DNA from: an uncultured virus (IMG/VR IMGVR_UViG_3300032030_000077)
Lineage: Duplodnaviria > Heunggongvirae > Uroviricota > Caudoviricetes
IMG/VR virus record: IMGVR_UViG_3300032030_000077
Length of the DNA stretch: 20,000 nt
Direction: 5' to 3' (one strand)
The translations under genes and the position numbers were made by a program. The notes below the pieces were generated by a model. That model was not told the DNA's origin, ran no database searches, and was given only the letters and a program-made list of their open reading frames with translations. This document shows positions 7,501 to 19,938 of this stretch, piece by piece; the stretch's first letter is position 1; the number at the start of each line of letters is the position of its first letter.

Positions 7501-9610
7501 TTCCGACGAGCTGTCTGAAAGCTCTTATCATCTCATAGACTCTGGAAAGATCGATATTCTTCAAACTTTCACCAAGAAGCTTAAATACTTCAGCAACTTC
7601 CCTTATGGCAAGTCCAACAAGGCCTATAATAATTCCAAGAACAGTTATTATAGCTCTTCCGGCATAAGTGAAAGTGGTAGTAAGGATTCTTACAACAGAG
7701 TCAAGAATCTTAGATTCAGCTATGAAATCGACTATATAAGCAATTATTTCTGCAAAAATAGAAACAAATGCAATAACTACATCAACCAATGGAGTAAAAG
7801 CTCCAACAATCTTAATTACTCCACCAGCTAATTTAGCGATTACACTAATTCCAGTTTTTACTATCTTAAAAAATGTCGTAAATATTTTTACAAGATTTCT
7901 CTGAGCAGGAACCGAAAGCTTAAGTTTCGAAGTAAAATCCGAAATAGCTTCAGTTATTCCAACAACTCCCTGAACTCCGTTTCCTGTAAATACTTTTAAA
8001 AATGCTTCAATAGCAGGGCCAACAACTGAAGAAATACCATTACCAAGGTTAATTGCTACAGAAAGGACATTCTTTAAAATGTTGGCAAGCTGTGAAATTC
8101 TGGTTTCTGCAACAGTATTACCGAATGCAGCAGACATAGCGTTGGAAAACTGCTCAAATGAGATTTCGCCATTATGGCACATCATAACTATCTCATCTTC
8201 AGTCTTGTCCATAGACTCAGCAAGGTTCTTGTAAACCTTACCCATGTCATTTCCGCTATTATGCATAATCTGCGTAAGTACAGTTATTGCAGACTGTGAA
8301 TTCCTTGCACCAGATTCAACATCATCAAATACCGATTTAATAAATCCAAAACTGCTTCCTGACAGTTGAGCAATTGCTGACATGGTCTGCTCTATAACAT
8401 TCTGTCCACCATGCCAAACATTGAACAAATCATGAGCTTTTTCAGTTAATCTAGTAATAGCATTAACAAATAGCTCAACGATACTTGCTTCTTTTTCTAC
8501 TCCAGGAAACTTTATTTTGAAATTTAACGCTTTTCTTACCTGGTTGATAGCTATTCTCACATCGTTAAGAATAGGAATCATCTTTTCTCTGAAAGGACCA
8601 ATGAAATCCGCACCTATCTTAGACAGAGCGAACTTCATGTTACTAAATGCACCAGTGAAAGTGTTGTTAGCATCCTTAGCATGATCGCCATAAGTGGCAT
8701 CCATAGCCTTTGCAAAAGTCATGAAGTCGATCTGACCTTTGGAAACCATGTCACGGATGTCTTTCTCTGTTGCATTGGCTGTAACACCAATATCATTCAG
8801 GTAATCTCTCAAAGTAGCTGCGGCATTAAGACCTCTAGCAGAAAGACTCTGCAGGTCTATTGCCATTACCCTACCATTACCAGAAATTCTCTCAAACACA
8901 TGGGCGATATCGTCATAAGACGCATTAGCCATTGCCGCAGTACCAGAAATGGATCTCAATGCAACCTGCATTTCTGTTCTTAACAGACCGTTTGCATCTT
9001 TCAGATCTTCCGAGAAATGAAGAACATCGACACCTGAAGTAGCAAGAACTGATGCCGCTTTAGCAGCTGAGTCCAGTCCATAAGCAGTGTCTGCAACAGC
9101 ATAATCAGCTGCATTCATTGCTACTATAAGGTCTTCAGACATTCCAACCATGTTTGCAATCTCCGAAGAAGATGCTCTCATGGTCATGTTAAGTTTAGCT
9201 ATTCCTTCGTCAGTCTTACCAAACAGACCTTCCAACTGGAACTGAGCCTGAGCAATATTGGCAGCTCTGTTGGTACCACCAGTAATGATCTGCTGCCAAG
9301 GTTTAGCTAAAACTCGCCCTAATTTACCAGCGAGATTCATTACTTCATTGGTAATTCGCTGAATAGCAGTCATACCAACGATTCCAAAAGTCGAGAATCT
9401 ATCAGACAAGCTTTCAAGACTTGATGTAATACCGGAAAGATCTATGTTTCTTGTGGCTCTTTCGAGAGAATCAAAGCTATTTGCATCAAACTGAAGGCTG
9501 TCTTTTAACTCATTTACAATATCTATGGTCTGGGAGACATTCTCTACAAACTTCGAGTTGTCAAATTTAATCTCTACCACATTAGTATCAATTACATCGT
9601 TCTCATTCAT
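1583..9610 (-). CDS. Tail tape measure protein (2675 aa)
   Basis: Very long helical Ala/Ile/Leu-rich ORF. It has an N-terminal tape-measure domain (AQAQFQLEGL, VADTAYGLDSAAKAASVLATSGV, MVSKGQIDFMTFAKAM), long hydrophobic repeats and C-terminal LQIKSPSRVF and PVITPTLDLS motifs. It lies just before Dit, has an AAAGGAG SD and overlaps the upstream gene by ATGA. Confidence 0.95.
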   Translation of the reverse strand: MNENDVIDTNVVEIKFDNSKFVENVSQTIDIVNELKDSLQFDANSFDSLERATRNIDLSGITSSLESLSDRFSTFGIVGMTAIQRITNEVMNLAGKLGRVLAKPWQQIITGGTNRAANIAQAQFQLEGLFGKTDEGIAKLNMTMRASSSEIANMVGMSEDLIVAMNAADYAVADTAYGLDSAAKAASVLATSGVDVLHFSEDLKDANGLLRTEMQVALRSISGTAAMANASYDDIAHVFERISGNGRVMAIDLQSLSARGLNAAATLRDYLNDIGVTANATEKDIRDMVSKGQIDFMTFAKAMDATYGDHAKDANNTFTGAFSNMKFALSKIGADFIGPFREKMIPILNDVRIAINQVRKALNFKIKFPGVEKEASIVELFVNAITRLTEKAHDLFNVWHGGQNVIEQTMSAIAQLSGSSFGFIKSVFDDVESGARNSQSAITVLTQIMHNSGNDMGKVYKNLAESMDKTEDEIVMMCHNGEISFEQFSNAMSAAFGNTVAETRISQLANILKNVLSVAINLGNGISSVVGPAIEAFLKVFTGNGVQGVVGITEAISDFTSKLKLSVPAQRNLVKIFTTFFKIVKTGISVIAKLAGGVIKIVGAFTPLVDVVIAFVSIFAEIIAYIVDFIAESKILDSVVRILTTTFTYAGRAIITVLGIIIGLVGLAIREVAEVFKLLGESLKNIDLSRVYEMIRAFRQLVGTFLTGGMLPVIQRAILSFLGAIGLFFVGIARAFTNLRETMASVFDKMKSTGAGLIEIFANIGERIKNAFMSVYEFISTKFLGLTSVVAIIESLLTFGVLYNVLRVGSAISRAVTSWANKNNAEALSLAASSIKKMATAFLIFAAAIVVLSFVPADRILNTIGVLMAVTLAIMGVSFAIQRIMNAVTAMNQSKDKVKPWEKAVSSFMASLSRSMERVAKGIQSFLKNIGRASLFTSIALLLVSIAGSIYILYKAVVAWANIPEEEMWLGFDRMGAVLATIIAAVAILGTTCKKAGGGLLGAAVVMLAFTAVLKGFASVVETFADMNRRFRSKDDANSVWFVFAEIGLAMLIMAGSVAIMGAACKKAGFGLMASAVDMMAFLIVLNQFTDIISAYAKFDADTFYSSWAKAASVLVLFAGAIWLITRTLGTADKTFTASLKGGLYYNKSSQSGLMGVILSLMAVAVLLKAYGSTMETISKYSWQDIAKTLSIIVASFVGIYASIKALQGTNGSSLRGLVGLIFTMTMMISIMTILDPYRAVAAAGGMALVLGAIAVAAEKLNGFGLKQNQNGKTILQMVSLIIVLTGALAVLANVQWDSVLSSAVSIGIILTALSYSLSHIKPVKLDDNTLKAMIYTLAILTADIFALSKIPVADKGALLAIAMSMSVLSIVVAETLVLLSKVTQIPANAIKAFSGITAVLGFMSLFFASSAAIIGSTNSINALTGIVVAMSSLSFVITGIIFLLSKINATDQIYKGVGAFSALLSVISVFGLLMSLIGLIGDPSDTLTIMQGMVLTMTGLLPFLLITMSVLSVLNVNKEFFLSVAGFTMLLGLVASFGAFMAYIGTIGNVDNTVTIMESLTKAMNGLLPFLLVFSVVLSFLGNLGPMILLGNAMFAILLTSIAGFAALLAGVGAIGNVENTVTVMEAITQSMRSLTVTMLMIIAVGALGIPAIAGLAILQGAVISLLGLFGIVGSFATIQNAVISGIGLITFVCDSIKRITEIMTGIKLEGILIFVTALNMLAGANVLGVVKVGAINAGLLLAVGPLVAIASMKSAIDAGLEAATKMMTDLVDIFNMSTILGGLNADEFIKATNDILRIADAVTNYASLQIVAGLAKGLINEHAKAILETSAIGMAAIIDNKFKEEMGIHSPSTRTEDEWGGNMVAGAGAGLTNASAESILRSATAQMGDFVNLEGISVFGNAGANSAESFAANFKAGLSGNLDLSGIFDLVSGGGKGKTGKKAGWYDTARVRADAGRLATAQQRAYEENFIRNFRSPEEYLAYQAEQASQNLQETDEGILDYGSTFTDLLKDFENSLSNLGNISDLTSGSLDDLGGSMGGVGSSASSASRQTDELMQKIDGLMEKYEDLWDDAKTNANKDLFKGVDSQGDDFLDTIKDIMNQYENIYQSAVERTNSQDLFAEVKMEDESFAPETLMKNLEDQVNQVNELNTIVASLSGRVTDENLRAAISQMDVDKLPELRALYRMNDRDLSSYQEMYRQKVQANQNKIQNELTGSISQITGEYTDIASYVATNESTNQLITNLQAQIDQLNEYNATVGSLMNRISDMNLREAIASMGVDSLAELKMLNSMTDAQLDSYTEMYNQKIAREAKALKNELSAELSAALGEPLDIEEFYISYKNGMSDLTNRISTDSATSELGRTAGTNIANSASDGISNSGSARSAGTGYVNEVANGMSDRDAIARVEANARLVIETITNIFDNAIDSFKEVGHKFIDQICAGIDLERRGAGFTNTFNDLIYGINYALTVNAEHQWLSIGEQITRGIGRGISSENAIAGVEQAARTVAIRASRAARDELQIKSPSRVFMQIGKFIDEGLAIGLRNYSGLAEDASGEMALGTLSPVQEAIQQLSGMLDGSIDINPVITPTLDLSQVNARSAALANMFNGRQIAIQARNDDQQAEMITQLGNIIAEQNAEPKSITFNQTNNSPKALSRTEIYRQTRNGFSQLVNAIS

Positions 9611-10003: not shown

Positions 10004-10567
10004 CTAGCCTTTCGAGTTATACTTGGCTCTTCTTGCAGCATTCAAAGCCATGTTACGTTGCATAATCTCACTTTTTCCCATCTTCTTAGGCGGTGTATTC
10101 TTAGCATTGCATACTTCGATAAGCCTAATGAGCCTGTTAAGATGCCATTTTTCGAACTCACAAGGTATCTGAAGGGCTATCATCCAGTAATAGATAAGTT
10201 CTGAAGTTACAACCTCTTTGGGACCTGACTTTTGACCAGGAACTTCACGTATGGTTGTAGCAGTCATCGGATCGTTTATGTAATCAGAAATCTTTTTTAT
10301 ATCATCGGCTGTCAAATAGTTGTAAACGACATCAGGTACATTCTGGTTTATTGTCATACACTTGATGTAGTGTATAGTCTGCTCTTCTGTATGCTGCTCT
10401 TTTGACATAAACGGAATATGCCACTTTGATTCCCATTTCGAAATCGATATTAGGGAATGCTCTAGATTAAGATCAATAGCTCTATTGCCAGGAATTTTGC
10501 GGAACTCCTCTTTCTTGGGGTCCCAATAGTCCTTTTCAGGATGCTCATCGATGTGAATCGTGATCAT
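10004..10567 (-). CDS. Putative tail assembly chaperone 2 (187 aa; start revised to ATG 10567)
   Basis: SD AAAGGAG at 10574-10580. Motifs LEHSLISISKWESKWHIPF, TSELIYYWMIALQIP and KWHLNRL are recognisable from pre-tape-measure genes of related siphoviruses. Confidence 0.65.
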   Translation of the reverse strand: MITIHIDEHPEKDYWDPKKEEFRKIPGNRAIDLNLEHSLISISKWESKWHIPFMSKEQHTEEQTIHYIKCMTINQNVPDVVYNYLTADDIKKISDYINDPMTATTIREVPGQKSGPKEVVTSELIYYWMIALQIPCEFEKWHLNRLIRLIEVCNAKNTPPKKMGKSEIMQRNMALNAARRAKYNSKG

Positions 10568-10586
10568 TGGTGTCTCCTTTACCAAT

Positions 10587-10620
10587 AAAACCAGGTGGAG
10601 CTTTGACACCCCACCCGGCT
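10587..10620 (-). terminator. Intrinsic terminator after the capsid gene
   Basis: Minus strand reads GCCGGGTGGGG-TGTCAAAG-CTCCACCTGGT-TTTATT: a GC-rich 11-bp stem with G-U pairs and a short U tract, starting about 17 nt after the capsid stop. Confidence 0.7.
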
Positions 10621-10636
10621 GAATAAAAACTTAAGA

Positions 10637-12817
10637 TCAAGCCTTCTGAGCAGACTCGATAACGATTGCACTGTAAGGAACAGTGAGAGCACCAGAGCAT
10701 CTGGTCTCGATCAGATACTTCATCTGGTTGTAGTCGATGTCGAAATCATCGAACATAGAAACTGCTCCGCCCTTATCAGCGCCTACAGTGTAGTCAGAAA
10801 GGTTAACAATGATACCGATAAGATCTCTCTGAACGTTACTTACAGTTCTCTGCTGTCCTTCCATTACCTGAACGGTAACGATGCGGCTTACACGCATAGC
10901 GGAAGCAACCTCAGCCTCGGACTTGTAAAGTCTGTGGCCCATGTTGTCCTCAAGAAGGAGCATATCTGTAAGAACATCTTCAGTGGTGAAGAATACAGGA
11001 TTTCCTGATCCCTTGTAGTTCTTACGAGCCTTAACTGCTGCACGGATGTAAGCCCTAGCCTTGTCATCGTCAGTAGCGTCTGCTTCATACTCAACAAACT
11101 GCTTTATGGTGAAGAGATCGTCATCGGTCCAGATAGGTCTGATGTGATCATGCTTGATGTGATCGTTAGATGCGGTAGATCTTCCGTCACCGATAAGAAT
11201 TGCTCTAGCGATTTCCTCGTCGAGCATCATTCTCATCTCGCCCTTGATCCATGCAACTACGTCGAAATCGGTGATGTCGATAACATCATCACGATCCATC
11301 TTCTGCTTCTTATAGATGGTCTGAGGATCAGTGGATCTCTTGAGCAGAGTGAAGACTTCCTCAGTCTTTCTCTGTCCCTTGAGGTAACCCTTAGCACGTG
11401 CTTCATCCTCAGTGATGTCTGCAAATACAGACTTAATGCGGCTGAAAGGAACATGCTTGGTTCCACCAAGTACTCCGGCAACCCAATCAGTGTTTCTCTT
11501 GATCCAAGCAGGAGGATTGTTGAGAGACTTTGCTTCAGGGAACAGGAATGAAGGATCATTTACCATGTAAGCCTGAACATCCTCGGAACGCTCGATATCG
11601 GTTCCATGCTGAAGAACCATATCACTGATTCCCATCTCCTCTTTGTGAGCCAGGAAGGACTCCTTAAGAGATCCATACTTCTTCATGTCAGCGATGATGC
11701 TGTTCTGCTCGTCAAGAGTCATGCTGTGAGCAAGAACTGCGCCCTGGCTATCGTTGTCAAATACATTGTGCTTCATATCTTCTTCTCCTTTATCAGAATT
11801 TTCGTCAGCTTTCTTCAAAGCCTCGCTGACGCAGTAATTAAGAACTTTCTTCTGTTCTTCGTTCATGGTGTCGATAACATCCTGAACGGTCCTCTTACCT
11901 TCGCCGTCAGCATGCTCGAGATGTTCATTTTCCATATCGCTGTCCTCTTCTGAATGTCTAATTCCAACTCCATTAAGCTGATTACTGGTTTGAGCTAATG
12001 CCGACTGAAGCTGATTATGCATATTTCTAGCCATCTGTGTAAGTCTTCCATCATCCCAAACAGCTCTTGAGTTTTTATAATCATTGAGATATCCAGTTCC
12101 ATATCTCTTTATAAGATCTTTACACCAGTCGACGCTCATGGAATTAAATACAAAATCGCCATTATTATTCCTATGATAACCCTCAAGAGTAGTATCAACA
12201 GGACTCTGATCTATAGTCCAACTGACATGTATCTTATCATCGTTCTTATTATAAGATGCTCTAGGACTTTTAACATCAGAATTCAAAGGAAGATAATGCG
12301 TAGCTTTAATTCCTACAGCATGCTCGAGTGACTCATCGTCATTAGATTCGATGTCATTAGACTCGATGTCATCATCGCTGAATATAACAGCTTCTTCCGG
12401 ATCAATGCCGTCTTCACTGTGCGCTATTGCTGTATCAATGAATGCACCGGGATTTGCACCGGCCAGAACCAAAGACACCTCACGGATTATTCCATGAACA
12501 ACATCGCTACCGTTCTGATGCTTAAGCTGATTTGCATATATGGAAAGAGACTTTATGTCGCCATTATCGACGAGCTCTCTCGCATTCTTGCCCTGAGTTG
12601 TATCATTCAGGAAAATATCAGCATAAACGCCTTCGTCTTTGCAGTGAAGGAGAGCATGACCGAGTACATTAAGAGGGGAATCATGCTTGTGATCCCACAC
12701 GAGCGGAACGGTCTGTCCATCGCACTCATCAAATGCTCCGGGTTTTATAGTTCTTCCATCTGCACACTTGATGTTAAAGCGGGTAGCCCATCCACCAAAG
12801 TCTCTAGTCTTACCCAT
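10637..12817 (-). CDS. Prohead protease-scaffold-major capsid protein fusion (HK97 fold), 726 aa
   Basis: Residues 1-130 match an HK97-type prohead serine protease (PLVWDH with candidate catalytic His43, KSLSI with candidate Ser92, REVSLV..ANPGA). The C-terminal part is capsid-like (QTIYKKQKMDRDD, EEIARAILIGDG, FDDFDIDYNQMKYLIETRCSGAL). It follows the portal and has a GGAGG SD. Confidence 0.92.
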   Translation of the reverse strand: MGKTRDFGGWATRFNIKCADGRTIKPGAFDECDGQTVPLVWDHKHDSPLNVLGHALLHCKDEGVYADIFLNDTTQGKNARELVDNGDIKSLSIYANQLKHQNGSDVVHGIIREVSLVLAGANPGAFIDTAIAHSEDGIDPEEAVIFSDDDIESNDIESNDDESLEHAVGIKATHYLPLNSDVKSPRASYNKNDDKIHVSWTIDQSPVDTTLEGYHRNNNGDFVFNSMSVDWCKDLIKRYGTGYLNDYKNSRAVWDDGRLTQMARNMHNQLQSALAQTSNQLNGVGIRHSEEDSDMENEHLEHADGEGKRTVQDVIDTMNEEQKKVLNYCVSEALKKADENSDKGEEDMKHNVFDNDSQGAVLAHSMTLDEQNSIIADMKKYGSLKESFLAHKEEMGISDMVLQHGTDIERSEDVQAYMVNDPSFLFPEAKSLNNPPAWIKRNTDWVAGVLGGTKHVPFSRIKSVFADITEDEARAKGYLKGQRKTEEVFTLLKRSTDPQTIYKKQKMDRDDVIDITDFDVVAWIKGEMRMMLDEEIARAILIGDGRSTASNDHIKHDHIRPIWTDDDLFTIKQFVEYEADATDDDKARAYIRAAVKARKNYKGSGNPVFFTTEDVLTDMLLLEDNMGHRLYKSEAEVASAMRVSRIVTVQVMEGQQRTVSNVQRDLIGIIVNLSDYTVGADKGGAVSMFDDFDIDYNQMKYLIETRCSGALTVPYSAIVIESAQKA
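12338..12372. repeat. 15-bp tandem repeat (about 2.3 copies) encoding the acidic linker DIESN-DIESN
   Basis: Plus strand reads GTCATTAGATTCGAT GTCATTAGACTCGAT GTCAT. Confidence 0.85.
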
Positions 12818-12845
12818 TTTGATTTTTCCTCCATTTTCTTACTTG

Positions 12846-14078
12846 CTATGACTCCATAGATACGTCTATTTCTTCACTCTCGGCTTCTTCCAGAGCTTCT
12901 TTTGGCTGTGAAAGGTTGTTGTTGACCAACTGATCTGCCTGAGGATCGTCGACCGGCTTCATTCCAATTGCCTGTCTAATTTCATTAGAAGTTGCGATAC
13001 AGTTCCTAGTAAGCTTATCTGCCAACTCTGCGAAATCAGCTATAGGCATAAGTTTGAACGGGTCTCTGAAGAACATTATTGACTGACCCTGAGTCATGGC
13101 TGTCTTAGTAAGAAATTTGCGTTTCATTTCATCAGTTATTGCTGAAACTATAGGTTCAATTGTCCTGGTATAATAGTTCTGCATGACTTTTTCGTCTGCG
13201 GTTCCATCCATTACTGCCTGAGTTATTCCAAGCTGGCTGTACAGCATGTTTGTGAAATACTCAACCTGTTCGATCATGTTGTTATCTATTGATCTATTAA
13301 GCTGGGTTATCTTTTCAGTTCCATCTGCGTATGCGATGCCATACTTGGAGCTGGACAATTGCATCTCTATGTCTTTACGTCTTCTCTCGGCCTGCTGTCT
13401 TCTAGCCGGAGTTTTAATAATGTAAGGAAGCTGGATGATCATATCCAGTTTTCCAGTGGAATTATGCTCGTCAATTGTGTCCAATAAATTAAGCTTCCTT
13501 ATAAGCCTTGAAGCCGTGGAACTTGGTTCATTCATTACTGAATAGAACGGGTTCTCTATAATGGCTACTGACTCTTTGGGAAGTGTTATCTCTTGCTCAT
13601 GGCCTATTCGGTCGTTGTACACTTTTACACGAACGTAATCCGGATACCACTGCACTATCTTGCCGACTCTCATTGAGAGAATATCAAAGGCACCTTTTCT
13701 AATGTCGGTATTCGTGTCTATCGGTACTATTGCTATGCATCCCTCGTCGAGAAGTGACATAACAACATCCTGAATAAACTGTCTTCCATTCTGGTCTTTG
13801 TTTGCAGATAGTGATAGGCAATTGTTGAAATCACTTTTGATTTCTTCTTTGTATCTTCCATCTTCGTCAGTTCTTACATGACGAATATTTATGGTTGAAG
13901 CATCTATAGCTATTCGATTATAGACAGCATTTATCATCGAACGCTCATTTCCTCTCGTGAATCTAACACGATCAGGTCTTGTATAATAAGCTTCACCATA
14001 ATTCCTATAATCATAGTACGGGCCGTCTCTACCGAGAAAGGCGTTCCATCCATGATGAAGTCTATCTTTTAAACTCAT
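12846..14078 (-). CDS. Portal protein (410 aa)
   Basis: Size, position immediately before the protease/capsid gene and motifs WNAF, YNRIAID, LSLSANKDQ, LDMIIQLPY, YYTRTIEPIVSAITDEMKRKFL and TSNEIRQAIGMKP (HK97-type NE-x-R motif). Confidence 0.93.
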   Translation of the reverse strand: MSLKDRLHHGWNAFLGRDGPYYDYRNYGEAYYTRPDRVRFTRGNERSMINAVYNRIAIDASTINIRHVRTDEDGRYKEEIKSDFNNCLSLSANKDQNGRQFIQDVVMSLLDEGCIAIVPIDTNTDIRKGAFDILSMRVGKIVQWYPDYVRVKVYNDRIGHEQEITLPKESVAIIENPFYSVMNEPSSTASRLIRKLNLLDTIDEHNSTGKLDMIIQLPYIIKTPARRQQAERRRKDIEMQLSSSKYGIAYADGTEKITQLNRSIDNNMIEQVEYFTNMLYSQLGITQAVMDGTADEKVMQNYYTRTIEPIVSAITDEMKRKFLTKTAMTQGQSIMFFRDPFKLMPIADFAELADKLTRNCIATSNEIRQAIGMKPVDDPQADQLVNNNLSQPKEALEEAESEEIDVSMES

Positions 14079-14098
14079 TTTGAATTTTTCCTTTCTCG

Positions 14099-16303
14099 TT
14101 ATCTTCGACGAAGCTCTTCTCTAACAGCATCTACATAGCTACTTATTCTTTCATTGTCGGGAAGCGAAGCCATGTCAACATTGCTGACCTGACTTATGAC
14201 AGGAGCTGCAGTACGCTGATACTTGATAGCATCTTCCTGATACTTATAGCTTCCGCCATAGTTTCCATAACCGATCTGAGCTTCAGCCTGAGCGGTATAA
14301 TAGCCGTCTTTTAACTGACGTATCCTGTTATTGTAATAATCCTGAGAATCGAATTTACGTCCGGAATCGTTCTTTATTTCAGTAGCTATCTGGTTTTTAA
14401 TAAAACCGTATGCTCCTGAACTTCTTGTTGAACTGAAACCTGCATCGTTAAGGGCTCTTTCAAGTAATCCCATACGATTGTTCTGGGTGGTGTTTCGTGC
14501 ATTGTTATACGCGTCAGCAGTATCTTTCTTAATGTCTTTAACTCCACTTGAAACTGCATCCTGTACTTTACCTATAGTTTTAGCTATATCATCGGTCTTA
14601 TCATTTGCAGTCTTCATAGCGTTAGACACTTTATCTGCTACGTCTTCACCTTTTTTAGAGTCTGCAGGTTTACCGGAATTGTTTTGCTGCCGATTCTGCT
14701 GATTATTAGGCTTTTGCGGTTGCTTCTGCTGATTCTGTTGCTGATTACCAGGTTTTTGCTGCTGATTGTTCTGCTGGTTATTATTGTTATTGCCACTTCC
14801 ACCAGTAGCTAAGCTCTTGATGTACTCTGACAAATACTGTTTAACACCAGAAGAAATTCCAGCAGGGATGTCCTCGATCAAATGATCTTTAAGATTGCTT
14901 ATAAGCTGTTCACCTGCAGTCTTTGGCGGGGCAGGATTATTTTTAGCGTACTCTTCCTTGTAAAGTCTTTCGTTACGCATTCTTTCTGTAGCAATCTTAA
15001 GTTCTTCGTCTGTCATTTCAGAAGGCTTCTTATTTTCGTAAGACTTCTTCTGCTGACCAGGATCATTAACATCCGTATCAGTATCTATTCGCTTTCCTTT
15101 ATAGTCGTATGTACCATGCGATGTCTTAAATGTAGTCTTCTTATTAATCTTCTTATTCTTACCTGTTCGGAGATTGTAACTTCTGATCATGTTTTTCATC
15201 TGATCTGGAGTTAATATATCTCCGTATCTTCTCCTACCTTCCTCAGTCAAAGAGCCGTCCGGGTTCTGAAACCGTCTAATGCCCCATTTCTGACCGAGAA
15301 TACCATGATGCTCCAAATGTTCATCTTCATCCATTGCTGAATGTCTGGCAGATCTCAGATCTCTAATTTCAGCATTGAGTCTATCCCAATCAGACTGGGT
15401 CATCTCTGATGCTTTAATGTCTGACATGCCAAGGTTCTCAGCTGCTTCATTTACATACCACCATGTATTATAATCATGACTTCCTTCAAAGTGGTCAACT
15501 ATTTCTTTAGCTTTATCGACACTCTTTAAATCACTTTCCGTATATTTGTAGCCACCATCATTAAATAAAACCAGATAAAATGCATCCGACTCCGGCTTAT
15601 TTTTGGCTTCAAATTTATACATCATAGTTGTTGCTAAACTATTAGATAAATGGAAATTCTTTTCGAGTTCGTCTGCGCCAACTTCTTCAAAAGCGTTAGA
15701 CAATGTTTCTTTCAAAGAGTCTTTAGTAGACTTAAAAACATCATCGTATTTTGCTTCAAGCTCTCGCGCTTTTTCAGTCTTACCGTTTTCGTTAAGATAA
15801 TACGATACGGCATTAACTGATTGCTGTTGACCATCTTCGAGACATCCCATAAATCCTTCGTTGCCAATGTCTTCAATTGTTAAATCTTCAGGATTCTTTT
15901 TATAATAAAGCGCGCTTGCTGCTATTTCAGTAGCTGCTTCATAGTAAGACATTGTTCCTTTATCTAAACCTTCAACCAATTCATCACATTCGTCAGATAT
16001 GTCTTTTAATTTCTTAGTATACTCTTCACAGATATCATAAGATTTATTCTTAGCATCAGAAGACGCACCAGTCATCCTGAACAGTTTTTCTACACCGCTC
16101 ATATCGCTGTCATTCGCGTAAATACCTTCTAACGTCTTCTTTATTAAATCTTTCTGCAATTTGTTTGTCTTACGATATCTAAGCATACCTTCGGAAGTAA
16201 GGCTACCATCCCGATTCTGAAACCGTCTGATACCCCATTTCATACCGAGTATGCCATGATGCTCCAAATAATCTGGAGACCTTTCGACGTAGTAATTGCT
16301 CAT
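14099..16303 (-). CDS. Modular head-associated protein with two LEH-HGILGxKWGIRRFQN tags and two unrelated cargo regions (734 aa; start revised to ATG 16303)
   Basis: SD GAGGAG at 16311-16316 precedes ATG 16303, while the longer TTG start lies inside a hairpin. Tags lie at 16175-16267 and 15224-15316. There is also a KKPSEMTDEELK..ER helix and an N/Q-rich tract. Function unknown. Confidence 0.8.
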   Translation of the reverse strand: MSNYYVERSPDYLEHHGILGMKWGIRRFQNRDGSLTSEGMLRYRKTNKLQKDLIKKTLEGIYANDSDMSGVEKLFRMTGASSDAKNKSYDICEEYTKKLKDISDECDELVEGLDKGTMSYYEAATEIAASALYYKKNPEDLTIEDIGNEGFMGCLEDGQQQSVNAVSYYLNENGKTEKARELEAKYDDVFKSTKDSLKETLSNAFEEVGADELEKNFHLSNSLATTMMYKFEAKNKPESDAFYLVLFNDGGYKYTESDLKSVDKAKEIVDHFEGSHDYNTWWYVNEAAENLGMSDIKASEMTQSDWDRLNAEIRDLRSARHSAMDEDEHLEHHGILGQKWGIRRFQNPDGSLTEEGRRRYGDILTPDQMKNMIRSYNLRTGKNKKINKKTTFKTSHGTYDYKGKRIDTDTDVNDPGQQKKSYENKKPSEMTDEELKIATERMRNERLYKEEYAKNNPAPPKTAGEQLISNLKDHLIEDIPAGISSGVKQYLSEYIKSLATGGSGNNNNNQQNNQQQKPGNQQQNQQKQPQKPNNQQNRQQNNSGKPADSKKGEDVADKVSNAMKTANDKTDDIAKTIGKVQDAVSSGVKDIKKDTADAYNNARNTTQNNRMGLLERALNDAGFSSTRSSGAYGFIKNQIATEIKNDSGRKFDSQDYYNNRIRQLKDGYYTAQAEAQIGYGNYGGSYKYQEDAIKYQRTAAPVISQVSNVDMASLPDNERISSYVDAVREELRRR
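14678..14791 (-). repeat. Low-complexity Asn/Gln-rich coding tract
   Basis: Encodes NNNNNQQNNQQQKPGNQQQNQQKQPQKPNNQQNRQQNN from degenerate AAT/AAC/CAG triplets. Confidence 0.85.
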
Positions 16304-16320
16304 TTTAGATCTCCTCTTTA

Positions 16321-16433
16321 TAAGAATCCCCATGCTGTAAGAAAATGCAGAAGCCATGCCCACTGATGCCAAGGAAAGGAGACAAAGAATGGCGGCACAA
16401 CTCCTGCACTCTCTTATAGCACAGGGATTCTTA
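16321..16433 (-). other. Long intergenic RNA hairpin (about 40-bp stem)
   Basis: Arms TAAGAATCCCTGTGCTATAAGAGAGTGCAGGAG and CTTCTGCATTTTCTTACAGCATGGGGATTCTTA pair at 27/33 Watson-Crick positions. Five of the six remaining positions are G-U on the minus strand, and the stem extends 7 more bp (TTGTGCC/GGCATGG). Confidence 0.8.
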
Positions 16434-16441
16434 AAATATCT

Positions 16442-16894
16442 TTACTTGGAAAGAGGATAGATCTTAGATGTAACCTCATCCAAGCTGCCGTCAGCTTTTG
16501 CCTTTTCGATAGCCTCAGCTGCATTTTCAGGTATTACTTTGTTAATAAACTCGGCAGCCGCTTCATGATTTGTTGCAAGCTCCATGAAAAGTACCGGATA
16601 TGCAGCCGTCTGCTCGAATTCTTCGGAAAGCGGTCTTCCTGTCTGCGGATCTTTCTTATAGAACGATTTGCCATCAAGTGATCTCTCACCGTAAGCCATA
16701 AGGATCAGGCTCTTAAAGAGTTTAATAAGCTCCGGTGTGTTCTGGGCATTTGCAATTCTGGTGATCCACTGATCGAATCCACCATCCTTTGAAAGTTCCA
16801 TTTCCATAATCTCAGCATCGCTGAAATTGAAGTAGAAATCTTCCTTTCTCTTGTTTCCTGAGTAATCGGTATACTCAATCGTTTTAATGTACAT
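16442..16894 (-). CDS. Putative tail assembly chaperone 1 (150 aa; start revised to ATG 16894)
   Basis: SD AAAGGAG at 16901-16907. Immediately follows the major tail gene. Motifs YTDYSG..RKEDFYFN and AYGERSLDGKSFYK, and FEQTAAY..LFMEL. Confidence 0.7.
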   Translation of the reverse strand: MYIKTIEYTDYSGNKRKEDFYFNFSDAEIMEMELSKDGGFDQWITRIANAQNTPELIKLFKSLILMAYGERSLDGKSFYKKDPQTGRPLSEEFEQTAAYPVLFMELATNHEAAAEFINKVIPENAAEAIEKAKADGSLDEVTSKIYPLSK

Positions 16895-16918
16895 AATTTT
16901 CTCCTTTCTAGACATAAC

Positions 16919-16950
16919 AAAAGGGGCCAGCGGTTAAGCCAGCCCCAAAA
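16919..16950 (-). terminator. Intrinsic terminator after the major tail gene
   Basis: Minus strand reads GGGGCTGGC-TTAACC-GCTGGCCCC-TTTTG. Confidence 0.7.
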
Positions 16951-16965
16951 TCATTTTGATCAACC

Positions 16966-17670
16966 TTATGCAAGCATTGCAATAACTGCATCAGGAAGAG
17001 GAAGATAAGGATCTGTAGCAACAGACTGAGGATCCTCAGGATCTGCATCGGTTCCGAAGAGTGCATCCGTAAGTCTCTTAAGCTTAGCCTTTGCCTCTTC
17101 GGTTGTGAAAGCAGTGCTGTCAATAGTAAGCAGAGAGGTAGGCTTATAGACATTGTCAGAAGCATCTTTAGAAGTAAGGGTAACAGGAGTGGTTGTGAAC
17201 TCCCAGCTGAACTCGATAGCATCAGGGCTATCATTGATGGTCTGATAATCTCTCTCTGAAGGAGATGCCATGCATCCGTATACAAGGTGAATCTTGTATC
17301 CATGATCGTTACCGTCGGTGTCGTTACCAAGAACGGTTCTGTAAGCAAGACCAAAGCTCTTTCTTGACTGCTGTCCGATAGTAAGTCCACCAACCTTAGC
17401 TTCGCCGTTGCAAAGTGCCCACTCATCGGGATACATGAATGCCTTGATTGTTCCCTTGAAGGTCTCTGCTGAATAAATGCTGAGATACTTAATGTTATCA
17501 GCATACTTGTCGTTAGGCTCTGCTCCTTCAGGAGTCTCGGTAACACCGGTAAGGCCATTCCAAGCTACTCCAAGAGGATAAGCTCCTCCAGACTGAAGAT
17601 AAAGTACACCATGATCGATACCTGTCTCAAAGAGACGCTCGCCGATCTGATCCCACTGTAAAGCGCTCAT
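16966..17670 (-). CDS. Major tail (tube) protein, 234 aa
   Basis: Motifs WDQIGERLFETGIDHGVLY, GVAWNGLTGVTETP, YADNIKYL, FGLAYRT, GYKIHLVYG and YQTINDSPDAIEFSWE. Strong AAAGGAG SD and a following terminator, as expected for a highly expressed gene. Confidence 0.88.
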   Translation of the reverse strand: MSALQWDQIGERLFETGIDHGVLYLQSGGAYPLGVAWNGLTGVTETPEGAEPNDKYADNIKYLSIYSAETFKGTIKAFMYPDEWALCNGEAKVGGLTIGQQSRKSFGLAYRTVLGNDTDGNDHGYKIHLVYGCMASPSERDYQTINDSPDAIEFSWEFTTTPVTLTSKDASDNVYKPTSLLTIDSTAFTTEEAKAKLKRLTDALFGTDADPEDPQSVATDPYLPLPDAVIAMLA

Positions 17671-17754
17671 AATATTTCTCCTTTAAAAATGTTAATTTGT
17701 TACTTTAGCCACCATTAGAAGTTTACTAGGACATCTAACAGTTATGCTTGGAAT

Positions 17755-17787
17755 AAAAATCCCACTCATCTATTGATTGTAGTGGGA
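17755..17787 (-). terminator. Probable intrinsic terminator after the 406-aa gene
   Basis: Minus strand reads TCCCACT-(14 nt)-AGTGGGA-TTTTT, beginning 7 nt after the stop codon. Confidence 0.55.
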
Positions 17788-17794
17788 ATTAATA

Positions 17795-19015
17795 CTATCT
17801 CCTTCTCACGTTAACCCTTATCGGTTCTACAGGCTCGTTTCCTGATCTATGAAAGTCTATCATGTCAGCTCTGTCTTTGATCTGGGAAAGCTGCATGCTT
17901 TTAACATTATTGATAAGGCTGGCTGCTGATGTAGCAGCAATGGCGGCTGGTAATACCAATCCAGCAACGGGCATTGCTAATACTGCAGGGTTTAATATTA
18001 CCGAACTGATCAACGCACTTCCCAAAACTGAAGAAGCTCCGGCCATGCCTTTACGCTTAGAAATTTCTTTCTTAATTGCCTGGCGGCTTTCGTTATCTAC
18101 ATAACTTCCGTCTTTGTTCGTGTACCTTTTCTTACCTTCGTCAGTTAAGGTTCCATCTTCATTTTGATACCTTCTGACGCCCCATTTCATACCAAGAACG
18201 CCATGATGCTCAAGATAGTCATAAGAATGACTAAGATTAGGACTATAATAACCTTCATGCTGAGGCTTATCCTGATACTTGTAATACAAAGAAATTGCCT
18301 GCTTGATTATTTCGTGTCTTACACTATCAGGCGCCTGCCTCCAATAAGATGGATAAGAATTCCTAACAGTATTTAAAAACGAATCTACTGCTGAAACTGC
18401 ATCTTTATGTCTATGAAGAGCTATAATAAAATCTGGCATTCTTCCAGCTTTACCATTTTTATTAACCAGTACAACATGCATCAAGGCTCTATAAGAATCC
18501 ATTCTATTGCCATCTCTGGTAATATAGCACTTACCAACTTTGTAAGGATACTGTTCTATAGTTGTAGTATTCTTAGTAAGATTAGGCGAATAGTATCCTT
18601 CATGCTGAGCATGCTCAAGATAGTCATCAGTCTCGATCACATCGTCGTCATCATCTGAGTGGTGAAGTTCGGTGTTGAAATGCTGCTGGACATAACGCTC
18701 AATCGCATCAGCAGCGAGCTTTGCCTGACCGGCATCGATCGACGCACGAGAATTAGACTTCCTTACAAGGTAATTTACTATCGCAGTCTTACCGCTTTCG
18801 ATAATCCTTCCAGGAACTTTGGTTCTAGCCTGGGAATTGTCTCTGGAATTTATTAAATCTATTTCAGCATCGCCATGATTCTCTACACGAAAGACACCCT
18901 GGAACAAATATCTGTCTCTCTTATAATCATTGCCCGATCCATTATTCGGAGAATAGTATCCGGCGTGCTGAGCATGGGCTAGAGAATCGCCCTCTCTGAC
19001 AACTAAATATCTCAT
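17795..19015 (-). CDS. Three-module protein with QH(A/E)GYYSPN repeats, one LEH-HGVLGMKWGVRR tag and a C-terminal hydrophobic segment (406 aa)
   Basis: GGAGG SD and ATGA overlap with the upstream gene. QHxGYYSPN at residues 16-24, 137-145 and 252-260, tag at 268-298 and an uncharged stretch at 324-368. Function unknown. Confidence 0.8.
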   Translation of the reverse strand: MRYLVVREGDSLAHAQHAGYYSPNNGSGNDYKRDRYLFQGVFRVENHGDAEIDLINSRDNSQARTKVPGRIIESGKTAIVNYLVRKSNSRASIDAGQAKLAADAIERYVQQHFNTELHHSDDDDDVIETDDYLEHAQHEGYYSPNLTKNTTTIEQYPYKVGKCYITRDGNRMDSYRALMHVVLVNKNGKAGRMPDFIIALHRHKDAVSAVDSFLNTVRNSYPSYWRQAPDSVRHEIIKQAISLYYKYQDKPQHEGYYSPNLSHSYDYLEHHGVLGMKWGVRRYQNEDGTLTDEGKKRYTNKDGSYVDNESRQAIKKEISKRKGMAGASSVLGSALISSVILNPAVLAMPVAGLVLPAAIAATSAASLINNVKSMQLSQIKDRADMIDFHRSGNEPVEPIRVNVRRR

Positions 19016-19344
19016 TCTGTTGATCCTCCGGTATATACAGTCATTGCCGCTATTACTTCGGCATACTTTGCATTTGTTTCCATCTGAGAATCTATAGCTT
19101 CGACTTTCTTCTTCAAAAGAAGGTTTTCATTCCTCAGCTTTTCCAATTCAAGCTGCTTTTCCATCGATCCAAGCTTGAGATAATGGCAAATAACCTGAGA
19201 ACTAGCGGTTCCTTCACGCAACTGCTTCTCTGCAAGGTTTGTAGACAGAGCTATCATTTGATTCTCACGAACTTGTGGATCGATTGCCCTACGGATAGGT
19301 GCAAGTTCCTTTGAGTTTTCTTCTATAAGTTTCTTCCTTCCCAA
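19012..19344 (-). CDS. Conserved small helical phage protein, candidate terminase small subunit (110 aa, TTG start)
   Basis: SD GGAGG at 19354-19358. Motif RENQMIALSTNLAEKQLREGTASSQVICHYLKLGS followed by a coiled coil (QLELEKLRNENLLLKKKVEAI). The gene is well supported, but the terminase assignment rests only on size, architecture and position. Confidence 0.5.
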   Translation of the reverse strand: MGRKKLIEENSKELAPIRRAIDPQVRENQMIALSTNLAEKQLREGTASSQVICHYLKLGSMEKQLELEKLRNENLLLKKKVEAIDSQMETNAKYAEVIAAMTVYTGGSTE

Positions 19345-19371
19345 GACAATCGGCCTCCTTTCCTTATACTT

Positions 19372-19938
19372 TTAGACCCATCTGTGCTGCTTATAGTCAT
19401 ATCTTCTGACTCTAAGCCCACTGTCTCTTAGACGTTCGACATTTAAAGATGTTGCTGAATCCGGGTTATCGTCTTCTGGCTGAACGACTAAACCTCTTGT
19501 AGAATCCTCTGTCATAGCAATATCTTTTTGTCTACGTATTAATCTTTCCTCTGTGTTACCATTATCGCTTATGGTTCTTACTTCCCAACCACCGACATTG
19601 TTTCTAACCTGAGGATCTGTTGTGTAAACTATTACATTAGAATATCCTTTTTCTGCAAGGTATTCCTGAACTCTGGTATCTGCTCCAGGAGCATCACCTA
19701 TGAGTACTTGAGAATTGGCAGCTATGATCTTATCGACTTCTTCTTTAAGGTTGTCGTCAAGTGGCTTGTCATAGCTAACCTTACCTGAAACGAAAACCTT
19801 ATCATCGGAAGAATATCTTCTACGATCTCTGGCTCTGTCGCGAGCCCTGCCTAAAGGTGTGTGAGTTCCATCGGGATTCTGGTACCGACGAACGCCCCAT
19901 TTTTGGCCTTTGACACCATGGTGCTCTAAAAAGTCCAT
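19372..19938 (-). CDS. LEH-HGVKGQKWGVRR-tagged SLOG-superfamily (YspA/DprA-like Rossmannoid) nucleotide-binding protein, 188 aa
   Basis: SD GGAGGT at 19947-19952. After the tag come KVFVSG (strand 1), VLIGDAPGADTRVQEYL (G-x-A-x-G-A-D loop-helix), RRQKDIAM and SATSLNV, in the order expected for SLOG domains. Confidence 0.7.
   Translation of the reverse strand: MDFLEHHGVKGQKWGVRRYQNPDGTHTPLGRARDRARDRRRYSSDDKVFVSGKVSYDKPLDDNLKEEVDKIIAANSQVLIGDAPGADTRVQEYLAEKGYSNVIVYTTDPQVRNNVGGWEVRTISDNGNTEERLIRRQKDIAMTEDSTRGLVVQPEDDNPDSATSLNVERLRDSGLRVRRYDYKQHRWV

Follow-up and report, generated by a model that had tools for sequence, protein, structure and literature searches.

The DNA window examined here, 20,000 nucleotides in length, is the first 20 kb, reversed, of the 61,068-base virus record IMGVR_UViG_3300032030_000077 (rated 100% complete), which represents a gut phage. 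It encodes a head precursor that joins a prohead protease, a spacer and the major capsid protein in one chain, as well as three accessory proteins that carry copies of a short peptide tag, DUF7211. The same motif, hydrophobic-x-His, recurs in the spacer of the precursor and opens every copy of the tag. We consider it somewhat probable that the fused protease cuts after the His of this motif and that the DUF7211-tagged proteins are cargo which is recruited and cut at the same sites. A first-pass annotation of the window had put forward L-x-H as the cleavage site of the prohead protease. The conserved sites in flexible segments and at domain edges, identified in silico, agree with that proposal, whereas its treatment of the tag opening as a bare junction did not hold and the portal motif that it listed as a further site is doubtful. 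All genes of interest are located on the minus strand of the window, and their coordinates are collected in Table 1.

The precursor comprises 726 residues and contains the Pfam domains Peptidase_S78 (PF04586, residues 7-128, 41.7 bits against a cut-off of 21) and Phage_capsid (PF05065, residues 464-719, 32.3 bits against a cut-off of 24.2). It matches phrog_3270 with an E value of 8.6e-212, and 244 phage records match. The candidate catalytic residues His43, Ser92 and His108 are invariant in all 38 aligned homologs. Seven candidate sites, numbered here by their first residue, were identified in the chain: IAHS131, LEHA164, IRHS286, LEHA300, LAHS362, LAHK389 and LQHG402. Conservation was assessed in the 120 best homologs, whose linkers are otherwise highly variable. 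His133 is present in 120 of 120, within the pattern [AIV]-[IML]-[AC]-H-[SGN], and His166 in 111, within [LIV]-x-H-[SA]; His391 is retained in 119, His404 in 98 and His364 in 69 of these proteins. An AlphaFold (AF2) model of the precursor, with a mean predicted local distance difference test score (pLDDT) of 63.6, places folded units at residues 1-128 (protease), 182-281 (beta-plus-helix), 311-339 and 368-390 (helices) and from about residue 444 onwards (capsid core). Each of the seven sites falls within, or borders on, a segment with pLDDT below 50 (129-179, 277-309, 339-365 and 398-434).

The position of the last site was compared with capsids of known structure in a fold search that covered the capsid part. 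The HK97 fold was confirmed by VIA-align Z scores of 14.1-15.4 to the capsids of a gene transfer agent, HK97, T5 and actinophages over model residues of approximately 397-725, with root-mean-square deviations of 3.5-4.5 across 225-256 aligned residues. In these alignments, HK97 residue 105 corresponds to model residue 407 (2fs3_A), HK97 residue 113 to 397 (1ohg_A) and T5 residue 166 to 415 (8zvi_A). The mature HK97 capsid protein starts at residue 104, with the cut before Ser104, and that of T5 starts near residue 160. The HK97 and T5 N-arms therefore align at about 397-415 and bracket His404, so that LQH|G (402-405) is the expected start of the mature N-arm. The first-pass annotation had expected the mature capsid N-terminus to follow an L-x-H site, and the predicted model is consistent with this, as the last site coincides with the start of the HK97-fold N-arm. 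Searches with the single sequence and with a profile returned no Protein Data Bank chain that matches the fusion, hence there is no solved capsid of the fusion family to supply a mature N-terminus.

Most of the 120 fusion homologs are approximately 614 aa long and do not contain a passenger in the linker. The precursor described here and one relative (P0002) carry an additional 122 residues between two acidic-LEHA junctions, which are modelled as a beta-sheet-plus-helix unit (residues 182-281, pLDDT about 50-60). This passenger is homologous to the first module of a multi-module DUF7211 polyprotein, P0275 (BLASTP E value 6e-8, 26% identity over 106 aa), in which module B of the 406-aa accessory protein has a homolog as well.

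Re-translation of the coordinates located every motif that had been listed in the first-pass annotation at the residue given there. Besides the seven sites of the precursor, these are LAHA12, LHHS117, LEHA133, LSHS261 and LEHH268 in the 406-aa protein, LEHH13, ARHS319 and LEHH330 in the 734-aa protein, and one site each in the 188-aa protein (LEHH4) and the portal (LHHG7). The motif counts were then compared across 81 open reading frames (ORFs) of the whole phage, some of them surely spurious, by setting six head-module proteins (2,688 aa) against the other 75 (16,546 aa). The pattern LEH[AHS] occurs eight times in the head module and not once elsewhere; composition-preserving shuffles gave a mean of 0.04 and none of 5,000 reached eight. 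The wider pattern L.H[ASGH] occurs 15 times in head-module proteins and three times in the others (shuffle mean 1.0, with 0 of 5,000 reaching 15). The enrichment of the motif in the head module, on which the earlier proposal depended, is thus present. As four of the eight LEH sites belong to copies of the homologous DUF7211 module, the eight are not independent events; the remaining four were found by BLASTP to lie in unrelated sequence. BLASTP likewise agreed with the description of the modules between junctions as unrelated, since the only similarity detected was a shared 11-residue piece, Q-H-x-G-Y-Y-S-P-N. In a sample of 916 ORFs from related IMG/VR loci, the density of [LIVM]xH[ASGH] per 100 aa reached 2.23 in fusion linkers, compared with 0.13 in other ORFs and 0.08 in capsid domains. 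The proteins concerned are rich in His (3.3-4.2% compared with about 1.5%); counted per His, there are 0.64 sites in the linkers and 0.09 in other ORFs. The motif pattern is far beyond chance.

The eighth LEH site, LEHS49 in the 201-aa protein, is absent from the first-pass annotation and is kept in 33 of 34 homologs, in which it forms part of a block L-x-L-E-H-S-L-x-S-x-S-K-W-E-x-K-W. This block is a loose echo of the DUF7211 tag. The approximately 48 residues ahead of it differ in length, and from the sequence this stretch could be a propeptide. The portal begins with a conserved motif, R-L-x-[H/N/R/K/S]-[A/G]-W-N-A-F, with His at the variable position in just 30 of 55 related portals. LHHG in the portal is accordingly a weak and doubtful site and was set aside as a candidate for cleavage.

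The motif LEHH, which had been regarded as a junction in its own right, turned out to be the start of Pfam PF23847 (DUF7211), an uncharacterised family of 25 positions that reads L-x-H-[H/Y]-G-x-x-G-x-K-W-G. The phage contains four copies on three proteins. Three of them score above the curated cut-off of 27 bits, namely copy 1 of the 734-aa protein (46.7 bits) and the copies in the 406-aa (38.8 bits) and 188-aa (36.0 bits) proteins; the fourth, an internal copy in the 734-aa protein, scores 21.4 bits, below the cut-off, and is 72% identical to copy 1. Searching 1.84 billion cluster representatives with a profile of the four copies gave 29,084 matching proteins at E<=0.001 and 20,892 at E<=1e-10. 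The best 150 tag-bearing representatives have two to five matched stretches each. A local profile search of these 150 yielded 386 copies, of which 323 could be anchored on the G-x-x-G-x-K-W-G core and the other 63 were excluded. Relative to this core, the anchored copies have His at position -2 without exception (323 of 323) and Leu at -4 in 304 (Ile in 17); position -1 is occupied by H (247), Y (30), W (22) or F (14), and Tyr, Phe, Asp, Glu and Ser are frequent between -9 and -5. L-x-H is therefore an invariant part of the tag and not a free-standing junction: the motif itself stands, while the notion of a bare junction gives way to the opening of a conserved tag of about 30 residues. A structure prediction of the protease domain (residues 1-130) together with the tag, made without controls, reached an ipSAE of 0.02 each time it was run, where the mark is 0.32; it bears neither way on binding. 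No paper naming DUF7211 was encountered in the literature searched.

The first-pass annotation had described a junction grammar of xxHS, an acidic spacer and L-x-H-H, which proved to be a property of the whole family. A stricter pattern, applied to the best 150 tag proteins, returned 193 internal and 125 N-terminal copies. A His is found 3-27 residues upstream in 170 of the 193 internal copies, compared with a chance estimate of 43% derived from His frequency. In 79 of the 170 junctions Ser comes directly after this upstream His, and in 141 the residue two positions ahead of the His is L, I, M, V or A. The spacers are 29% acidic against a background of 15%. Across the sites, A, G, D, K, H, Y or M also follow the His.

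The accessory proteins had been described as modular strings, and a comparison with their relatives supports this view because cassettes are exchanged at the junctions. The 406-aa protein consists of modules that are delimited by LAHA12, by LHHS117 with a spacer and LEHA133, and by LSHS261 with YDY and LEHH268, and its AF2 model shows two alpha/beta units (residues 41-112 and 159-248) with low-confidence junctions between them. Among its relatives P0271-P0276, cassettes are inserted, replaced or dropped at these junctions: P0271 has one extra cassette between B and C, module B is replaced in P0272, P0273 and P0274, and module C is replaced in P0272, P0274 and P0276. Another relative, P0279, has M-A-Q-H-E-G-Y-Y-S-P-N as its first residues, and its chain opens precisely behind the predicted LEH|A bond. 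In loci L007 and L008, residues 385-560 of the 734-aa protein (in the numbering of the 757-aa ORF) occur by themselves in a tagged protein of 282-288 aa. L008 also encodes the payload of the 188-aa protein on its own, and in L056 this payload is the last, C-terminal module of a multi-site chain of 577 aa. Its earlier label as a SLOG protein is unconfirmed, with an Atlas lead to DNA_processg_A at 0.89 only and no Pfam hit. No homolog of six of the eight payload pieces turned up in 72 related loci, compared with 33 and 52 hits there for the neighbouring core proteins of 201 and 110 aa. Pfam assigned nothing to the eight payload pieces at E<=0.001 and hence no recognisable toxin domain, and a Pfam scan of ten proteins contained no Phage_Mu_F domain. 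Payloads of relatives include a Gln_amidase ('papain fold toxin 1') domain in P0129 (30 bits, cut-off 24.1) and a GNAT domain in P0132.

Some further features of these proteins were observed. The tagged relatives with Gln_amidase or GNAT payloads are P0129, P0272, P0276 and P0132, and gp10 of Arthrobacter phage Truckee (gene 10 of locus L084), which is annotated as an acetyltransferase, has the tag at its start. The element Q-H-[A/E]-G-Y-Y-S-P-N is present three times at module edges of the 406-aa protein (residues 16-24, 137-145 and 252-260; window regions 18965-18970, 18602-18607 and 18236-18262), directly after LAHA or LEHA or before LSHS. It recurs in P0271-P0280 and in none of the 150 top DUF7211 representatives. 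Residues of about 300-406 of the 406-aa protein (window 17795-18118) form a long hydrophobic stretch after the tag that is rich in Ala, Leu, Val and Ser. Judged by its composition, this part of module C may be a membrane-inserting segment, which would be notable for an ejected protein.

The distribution of the tag was followed in other phages. A tblastn search with one tag copy retrieved 44 phage records, assigned to Gordonia phages (36), faecal 'Bacteriophage sp.' (6) and FP_oengus (2). With the local profile, tags were located in Faecalibacterium phage FP_oengus (gp69), Lactococcus phages P118 (gp07 and gp08) and 1706 (gp07, with two copies and three further sites), Arthrobacter phages Truckee (gp8-11) and Circum (gp7, with two copies, and gp9), Gordonia phage Untouchable (gp15, 17 and 18), Rhodococcus phage ReqiPepy6 (gp15-21, seven proteins), Streptomyces phage Madamato (four ORFs) and Curtobacterium phage Daddyjeff (two ORFs). 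Every tagged phage found in this way also has a His-studded linker. Caudovirus D_HF4_2 was the sole scanned locus in which the tag was not found, and this locus ends at the start of a circular record. In the relatives, tagged genes are mostly situated between terminase and portal. The tagged proteins 1706 gp07 and ReqiPepy6 gp19 are called 'structural protein' by record annotation alone, and the tag region is matched by phrog_35934, a 'virion structural protein'. In ReqiPepy6, gp15-gp21 are seven consecutive genes between terminase and portal (L086, 1050-6800), all of which open with an actinophage form of the tag, [D/E]-x-F-L-A-H-Y-G-V-K-G-M-K-W-G.

The tag and the fusion gene were found to occur together across the lineage. 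Of 72 IMG/VR loci that were retrieved by the tag, 46 contain the fusion gene, as do 29 of the 32 with at least 7 kb of downstream sequence. The three exceptions are L038, whose contig has the fusion gene elsewhere, and L056 and L053, whose contigs (62% and 13% complete) have no fusion gene. Among the other loci without the fusion gene, the contig of L071 contains it and that of L042 (19% complete) does not. Similarly, the fusion gene is present in 48 of 69 loci from bacterial genomes and metagenome-assembled genomes, mostly of Lachnospiraceae, Oscillospiraceae and other Clostridia, and in 30 of the 33 for which 7 kb or more of downstream sequence is available; in the exceptions, other genes of this phage lineage are present. 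Loci with a tag and no fusion gene were considered as counter-examples and set aside, as they are fragments, have the fusion gene elsewhere on the contig or contain other genes of the same lineage.

These observations can be arranged into a model of head assembly. The phage makes its head from one precursor, in which an S78 serine protease is followed by a disordered acidic spacer, with helices that resemble a scaffold, and then by an HK97-fold capsid protein. Once enclosed in the procapsid, the protease would cut at hydrophobic-x-His, most likely after the His, with [acidic]-[Y/F/H/S]-L-E-H|[A/H] and hydrophobic-x-H|S as the preferred sites. Protease, spacer and scaffold would thereby be removed from the 81 kDa precursor to leave a capsid protein of 322 residues and roughly 36 kDa that starts near Gly405. 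The same site opens the DUF7211 tag of about 30 residues on accessory proteins encoded among the head genes, and the tag would bring these proteins into the assembling head. Through the two-site acidic junctions, several unrelated payloads could be made as one chain and then be cut apart in the head. Seven payloads are predicted, of which the 406-aa protein would supply three, the 734-aa protein two and the 188-aa protein one; the seventh is the passenger in the capsid precursor. As the set of payloads changes fast, they are probably effectors that are delivered with the DNA. The basic, conserved part of the tag is downstream of the putative cut and would stay on the cargo, where it could bind shell, scaffold or DNA or act after ejection. 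We infer cleavage, the exact bond, packaging and ejection from sequence evidence. A more far-reaching version of the model, which is offered tentatively as a possibility that falls somewhat short of even, extends it to a siphovirus lineage of Firmicutes and Actinobacteria with more than 29,000 tag-bearing representatives that would share a His-site cargo code. A capsid-fused, His-specific protease would both mature the head and gate entry into it, and tagged polyprotein effectors would be loaded, cut and injected; examples would be deamidase toxins, acetyltransferases, DprA/SLOG-like proteins and membrane-inserting modules, with passengers even in the capsid precursor.

Several findings weigh against cleavage of precursor and cargo at one common motif. 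The matches LGHA52 and VVHG106 belong to the conserved core of the folded protease, where the model makes a cut unlikely, and together with the boundary site they give the protease domain a motif density of 1.83 per 100 aa; a cut is therefore not defined by the motif alone. Tags have an aromatic residue after His and linkers a small one, and the two kinds of site may be handled differently. N-terminal tag copies always keep L-x-H with at least three residues ahead of it (3-20), so the motif must serve more than domain separation, and as a cut behind only about three residues would remove almost nothing, it is possibly a binding element and not a scissile one. Many spacers are not simply acidic, as they carry a recurring hairpin-like piece, for example I-E-D-G-T-L-Y, which may be structured. 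The AF2 model of the 406-aa protein is of low confidence (mean pLDDT 44). Lastly, the loci compared are the closest matches to the tag profile and the association is lineage-wide, so that function is not separable from common descent. The main rival reading is a docking motif: L-x-H and the rest of DUF7211 would bind the inside of the procapsid, be it the protease groove, the scaffold helices or the capsid N-arm, the accessory chains would stay intact and only the capsid precursor would be cut. Conservation of the tag for some 30 residues past L-x-H, the short stretches ahead of N-terminal copies, the differing residues after His and the structured appearance of some spacers all suit such a role. 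Nevertheless, 170 of the 193 internal copies follow a second hydrophobic-x-H-[S] site and an acidic spacer, and as this double-site grammar is that of the capsid linker, which must be cut away, it counts against docking without cleavage. The same payloads are moreover found both stand-alone and fused, and P0279 begins exactly after LEH. Docking without cleavage of the cargo is therefore regarded as rather unlikely, if still to be reckoned with.

The tagged proteins might also have a destination other than the head, with DUF7211 marking late-expressed effectors for the membrane, the cell wall, secretion or a target in the host, and with the likeness to the capsid linker being due to shared lineage. 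The hydrophobic stretch in module C would agree with this idea, as would the toxin-like Gln_amidase and GNAT domains of relatives, which could act within the producing cell, and the tagged genes that are also found among tail genes in L038 and L145. We nonetheless judge such a destination improbable, given the annotation of 1706 gp07 and ReqiPepy6 gp19 as structural proteins, the usual position of tagged genes between terminase and portal, the payload-type module inside the capsid precursor and the acidic double-site junction in common with the capsid linker. Self-cleavage would dispense with the prohead protease altogether if His-Ser marked cis-autoproteolysis by an N-O acyl shift, as in Nup98 or GAIN domains. 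The upstream His does precede Ser in 79 of 170 junctions, as is the case at most linker sites of this phage; as A, G, D, K, H, Y or M can stand there instead of Ser, a nucleophile is not required. The junctions lie in low-confidence and apparently unfolded segments, while known autoproteolytic sites require a surrounding folded domain. Self-cleaving junctions are on these grounds considered very improbable. An artefact of chance or composition, arising from His-rich, acidic low-complexity linkers, would be conceivable in view of the high His content of the proteins, but its probability is close to negligible, as the shuffles that keep the composition never reach the observed counts, sites per His amount to 0.64 in linkers against 0.09 in other ORFs, and the His columns are conserved across 120 homologs.

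The general type of system proposed is already known. It is represented by T4, P1 and phiKZ/SPN3US, where the head protease recognises a simple motif in precursors as well as in internal or ejected proteins, and where a targeting peptide is involved. T4 gp21 cuts (L/I)-x-E and the herpesvirus assemblin, which shares its fold, cuts (V/L/I)-x-A|S; the site pattern proposed here, with a hydrophobic residue at P3 and a defined residue at P1, would parallel both by analogy. The internal proteins IPI-III and Alt of T4 have capsid-targeting sequences of 10 residues that are removed by gp21. Both in T4 and here, one short peptide is attached to unrelated proteins (in this phage four copies on three proteins, with payloads unrelated by BLASTP), the peptide carries the same motif as the head-precursor sites, with a hydrophobic residue two positions before the defined one, and the proteases belong to a related fold family. 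Unlike in T4, the defined residue is His and not Glu, and the tag comprises about 30 residues instead of 10, the greater part of them beyond the putative cut. Copies of the tag are found inside the chains too, at two to five per chain and with payloads arranged as polyproteins, and the protease is fused to the capsid protein, in siphoviruses of Gram-positive hosts known in this respect from sequence alone. A comparison can also be made with the MuF-type polymorphic toxins of temperate phages, reportedly the subject of work by Jamet et al. in 2017. These resemble the tagged proteins in joining a conserved, head-associated N-terminal part to highly variable C-terminal effectors, and relatives of the 406-aa protein end in Gln_amidase. 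They differ in that there is no MuF domain here, that the conserved part is the 30-residue tag and that several payloads with putative cut sites are present per chain. Polymorphic toxin and effector systems in general share the combination of a conserved delivery part with hypervariable modules (six of eight pieces without a homolog, cassettes replaced), whereas Pfam recognises no toxin domain in the payloads of this phage.

For phiKZ gp175 and SPN3US gp245, the literature describes cleavage of many head and ejection proteins at a consensus motif (PMC5694885, PMC7411985, PMC10052503). The likeness consists in one prohead protease, many head-internal or ejected proteins, a tripeptide-like motif and the removal of propeptides; motif and protease clade are different, a DUF7211-like tag is missing, the phages are large-genome myoviruses, and their cleavage was established by mass spectrometry while ours is inferred. 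The protease-capsid fusion itself is already in print (PMC5513430, bioRxiv 10.1101/2020.01.10.891226, bioRxiv 10.1101/842583), and the available portions of these three texts make no mention of cleavage sites, a His motif or a tag on neighbouring genes. The 726-aa protein is a member of this known family (phrog_3270) and differs from it by the 122-residue linker passenger. The accessible part of PMC5883640 contains no cleavage data, and none were seen in the literature searched on capsid targeting, on fusions of capsid and protease, or on P087, ReqiPepy6 and phage 1706. Nor did the literature searched yield the His site, the DUF7211 tag, chains of several payloads with double sites or a passenger within the capsid precursor, and it is these elements that would be new here.

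If the proposed reading is true, it would provide a function for DUF7211, which is among the more widespread uncharacterised phage peptide modules, and would reveal that a protease of the HK97/assemblin fold has an unusual specificity, with His ahead of the cut. It would also mean that gut and soil phages inject a large and fast-changing set of proteins with their DNA, likely as tools against host defence. The site rule would allow mature capsid ends and cargo to be predicted from sequence across the lineage, and with the 30-residue tag and a cuttable junction as a simple handle, foreign proteins could be loaded into phage heads. Cultured, harmless model phages with Lactococcus lactis, Arthrobacter and Gordonia terrae as hosts exist, which makes the idea directly testable.

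Table 1. Coordinates of the features discussed, given as positions in the 20,000-nucleotide window
Feature	Positions	Strand	Basis
201-aa protein, phrog_4338	10004..10609	-	conserved LEHS at residues 49-52 (window 10454-10465)
Protease-spacer-capsid precursor, 726 aa (S78 prohead protease and HK97-fold major capsid protein)	10637..12817	-	Pfam, PHROG, fold match
Predicted mature capsid protein, residues 405-726 (322 aa)	10637..11605	-	fold alignment; putative cut after H404
Scaffold-like spacer, residues 304-404, with LAHS362, LAHK389, LQHG402	11606..11908	-	helices 311-339, 368-390
Second junction, IRHS286 + EEDSDMENEH + LEHA300	11909..11962	-	pLDDT<50 segment 277-309
Passenger module in linker, residues 167-288	11954..12319	-	insert relative to homologs; BLASTP to P0275
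First junction, IAHS131 + acidic spacer + LEHA164	12317..12427	-	pLDDT<50 segment 129-179
Protease domain, residues 1-133, ending A-I-A-H	12419..12817	-	AF2 fold (strands 7-116); H133
Portal, 410 aa	12846..14078	-	Pfam Phage_portal, 75.1 bits; LHHG at residues 7-10 (window 14049-14060)
734-aa two-module protein	14099..16303	-	start at M24 of 757-aa TTG ORF; L007/L008 homologs start at equivalent Met
Internal junction of 734-aa protein and DUF7211 copy 2 (ARHS, AMDEDEH, LEHH)	15200..15349	-	re-translation; tag profile
DUF7211 copy 1 of 734-aa protein, N-terminal	16151..16273	-	PF23847, 46.7 bits
406-aa protein: module A, residues 16-117; B, 137-261; C, 269-406 (DUF7211 and hydrophobic tail)	17795..19015	-	junction sites; relatives
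DUF7211 copy in 406-aa protein	18098..18220	-	PF23847, 38.8 bits
188-aa protein: N-terminal DUF7211 tag and payload	19372..19938	-	PF23847, 36.0 bits, residues 2-20

In the order of transcription, the region encodes the 188-aa protein, a conserved 110-aa protein (phrog_4259), the 406-aa protein, the major tail protein, a tail assembly chaperone, the 734-aa protein, the portal, the 726-aa protease-capsid fusion, the 201-aa protein, a neck protein and a tape measure of 2,675 aa. This order is unusual in that the genes for the major tail protein and the tail chaperone (window 16442-17670) are upstream of the portal and flanked by two tagged genes. The large terminase (genome C1:33164-34921) is approximately 26 kb away from the portal, and the same genes are otherwise rearranged in related loci. 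Megablast of the region against phage records returned no matches. A tagged RNA polymerase was looked for in this genome and not found. Outside the window, a 1,355-aa protein (genome C1:47447-51514) resembles a fusion of primase-helicase and DNA polymerase and does not carry the tag. The tape measure (window 1583-9610) is very long, and its middle third contains an extended series of hydrophobic segments.

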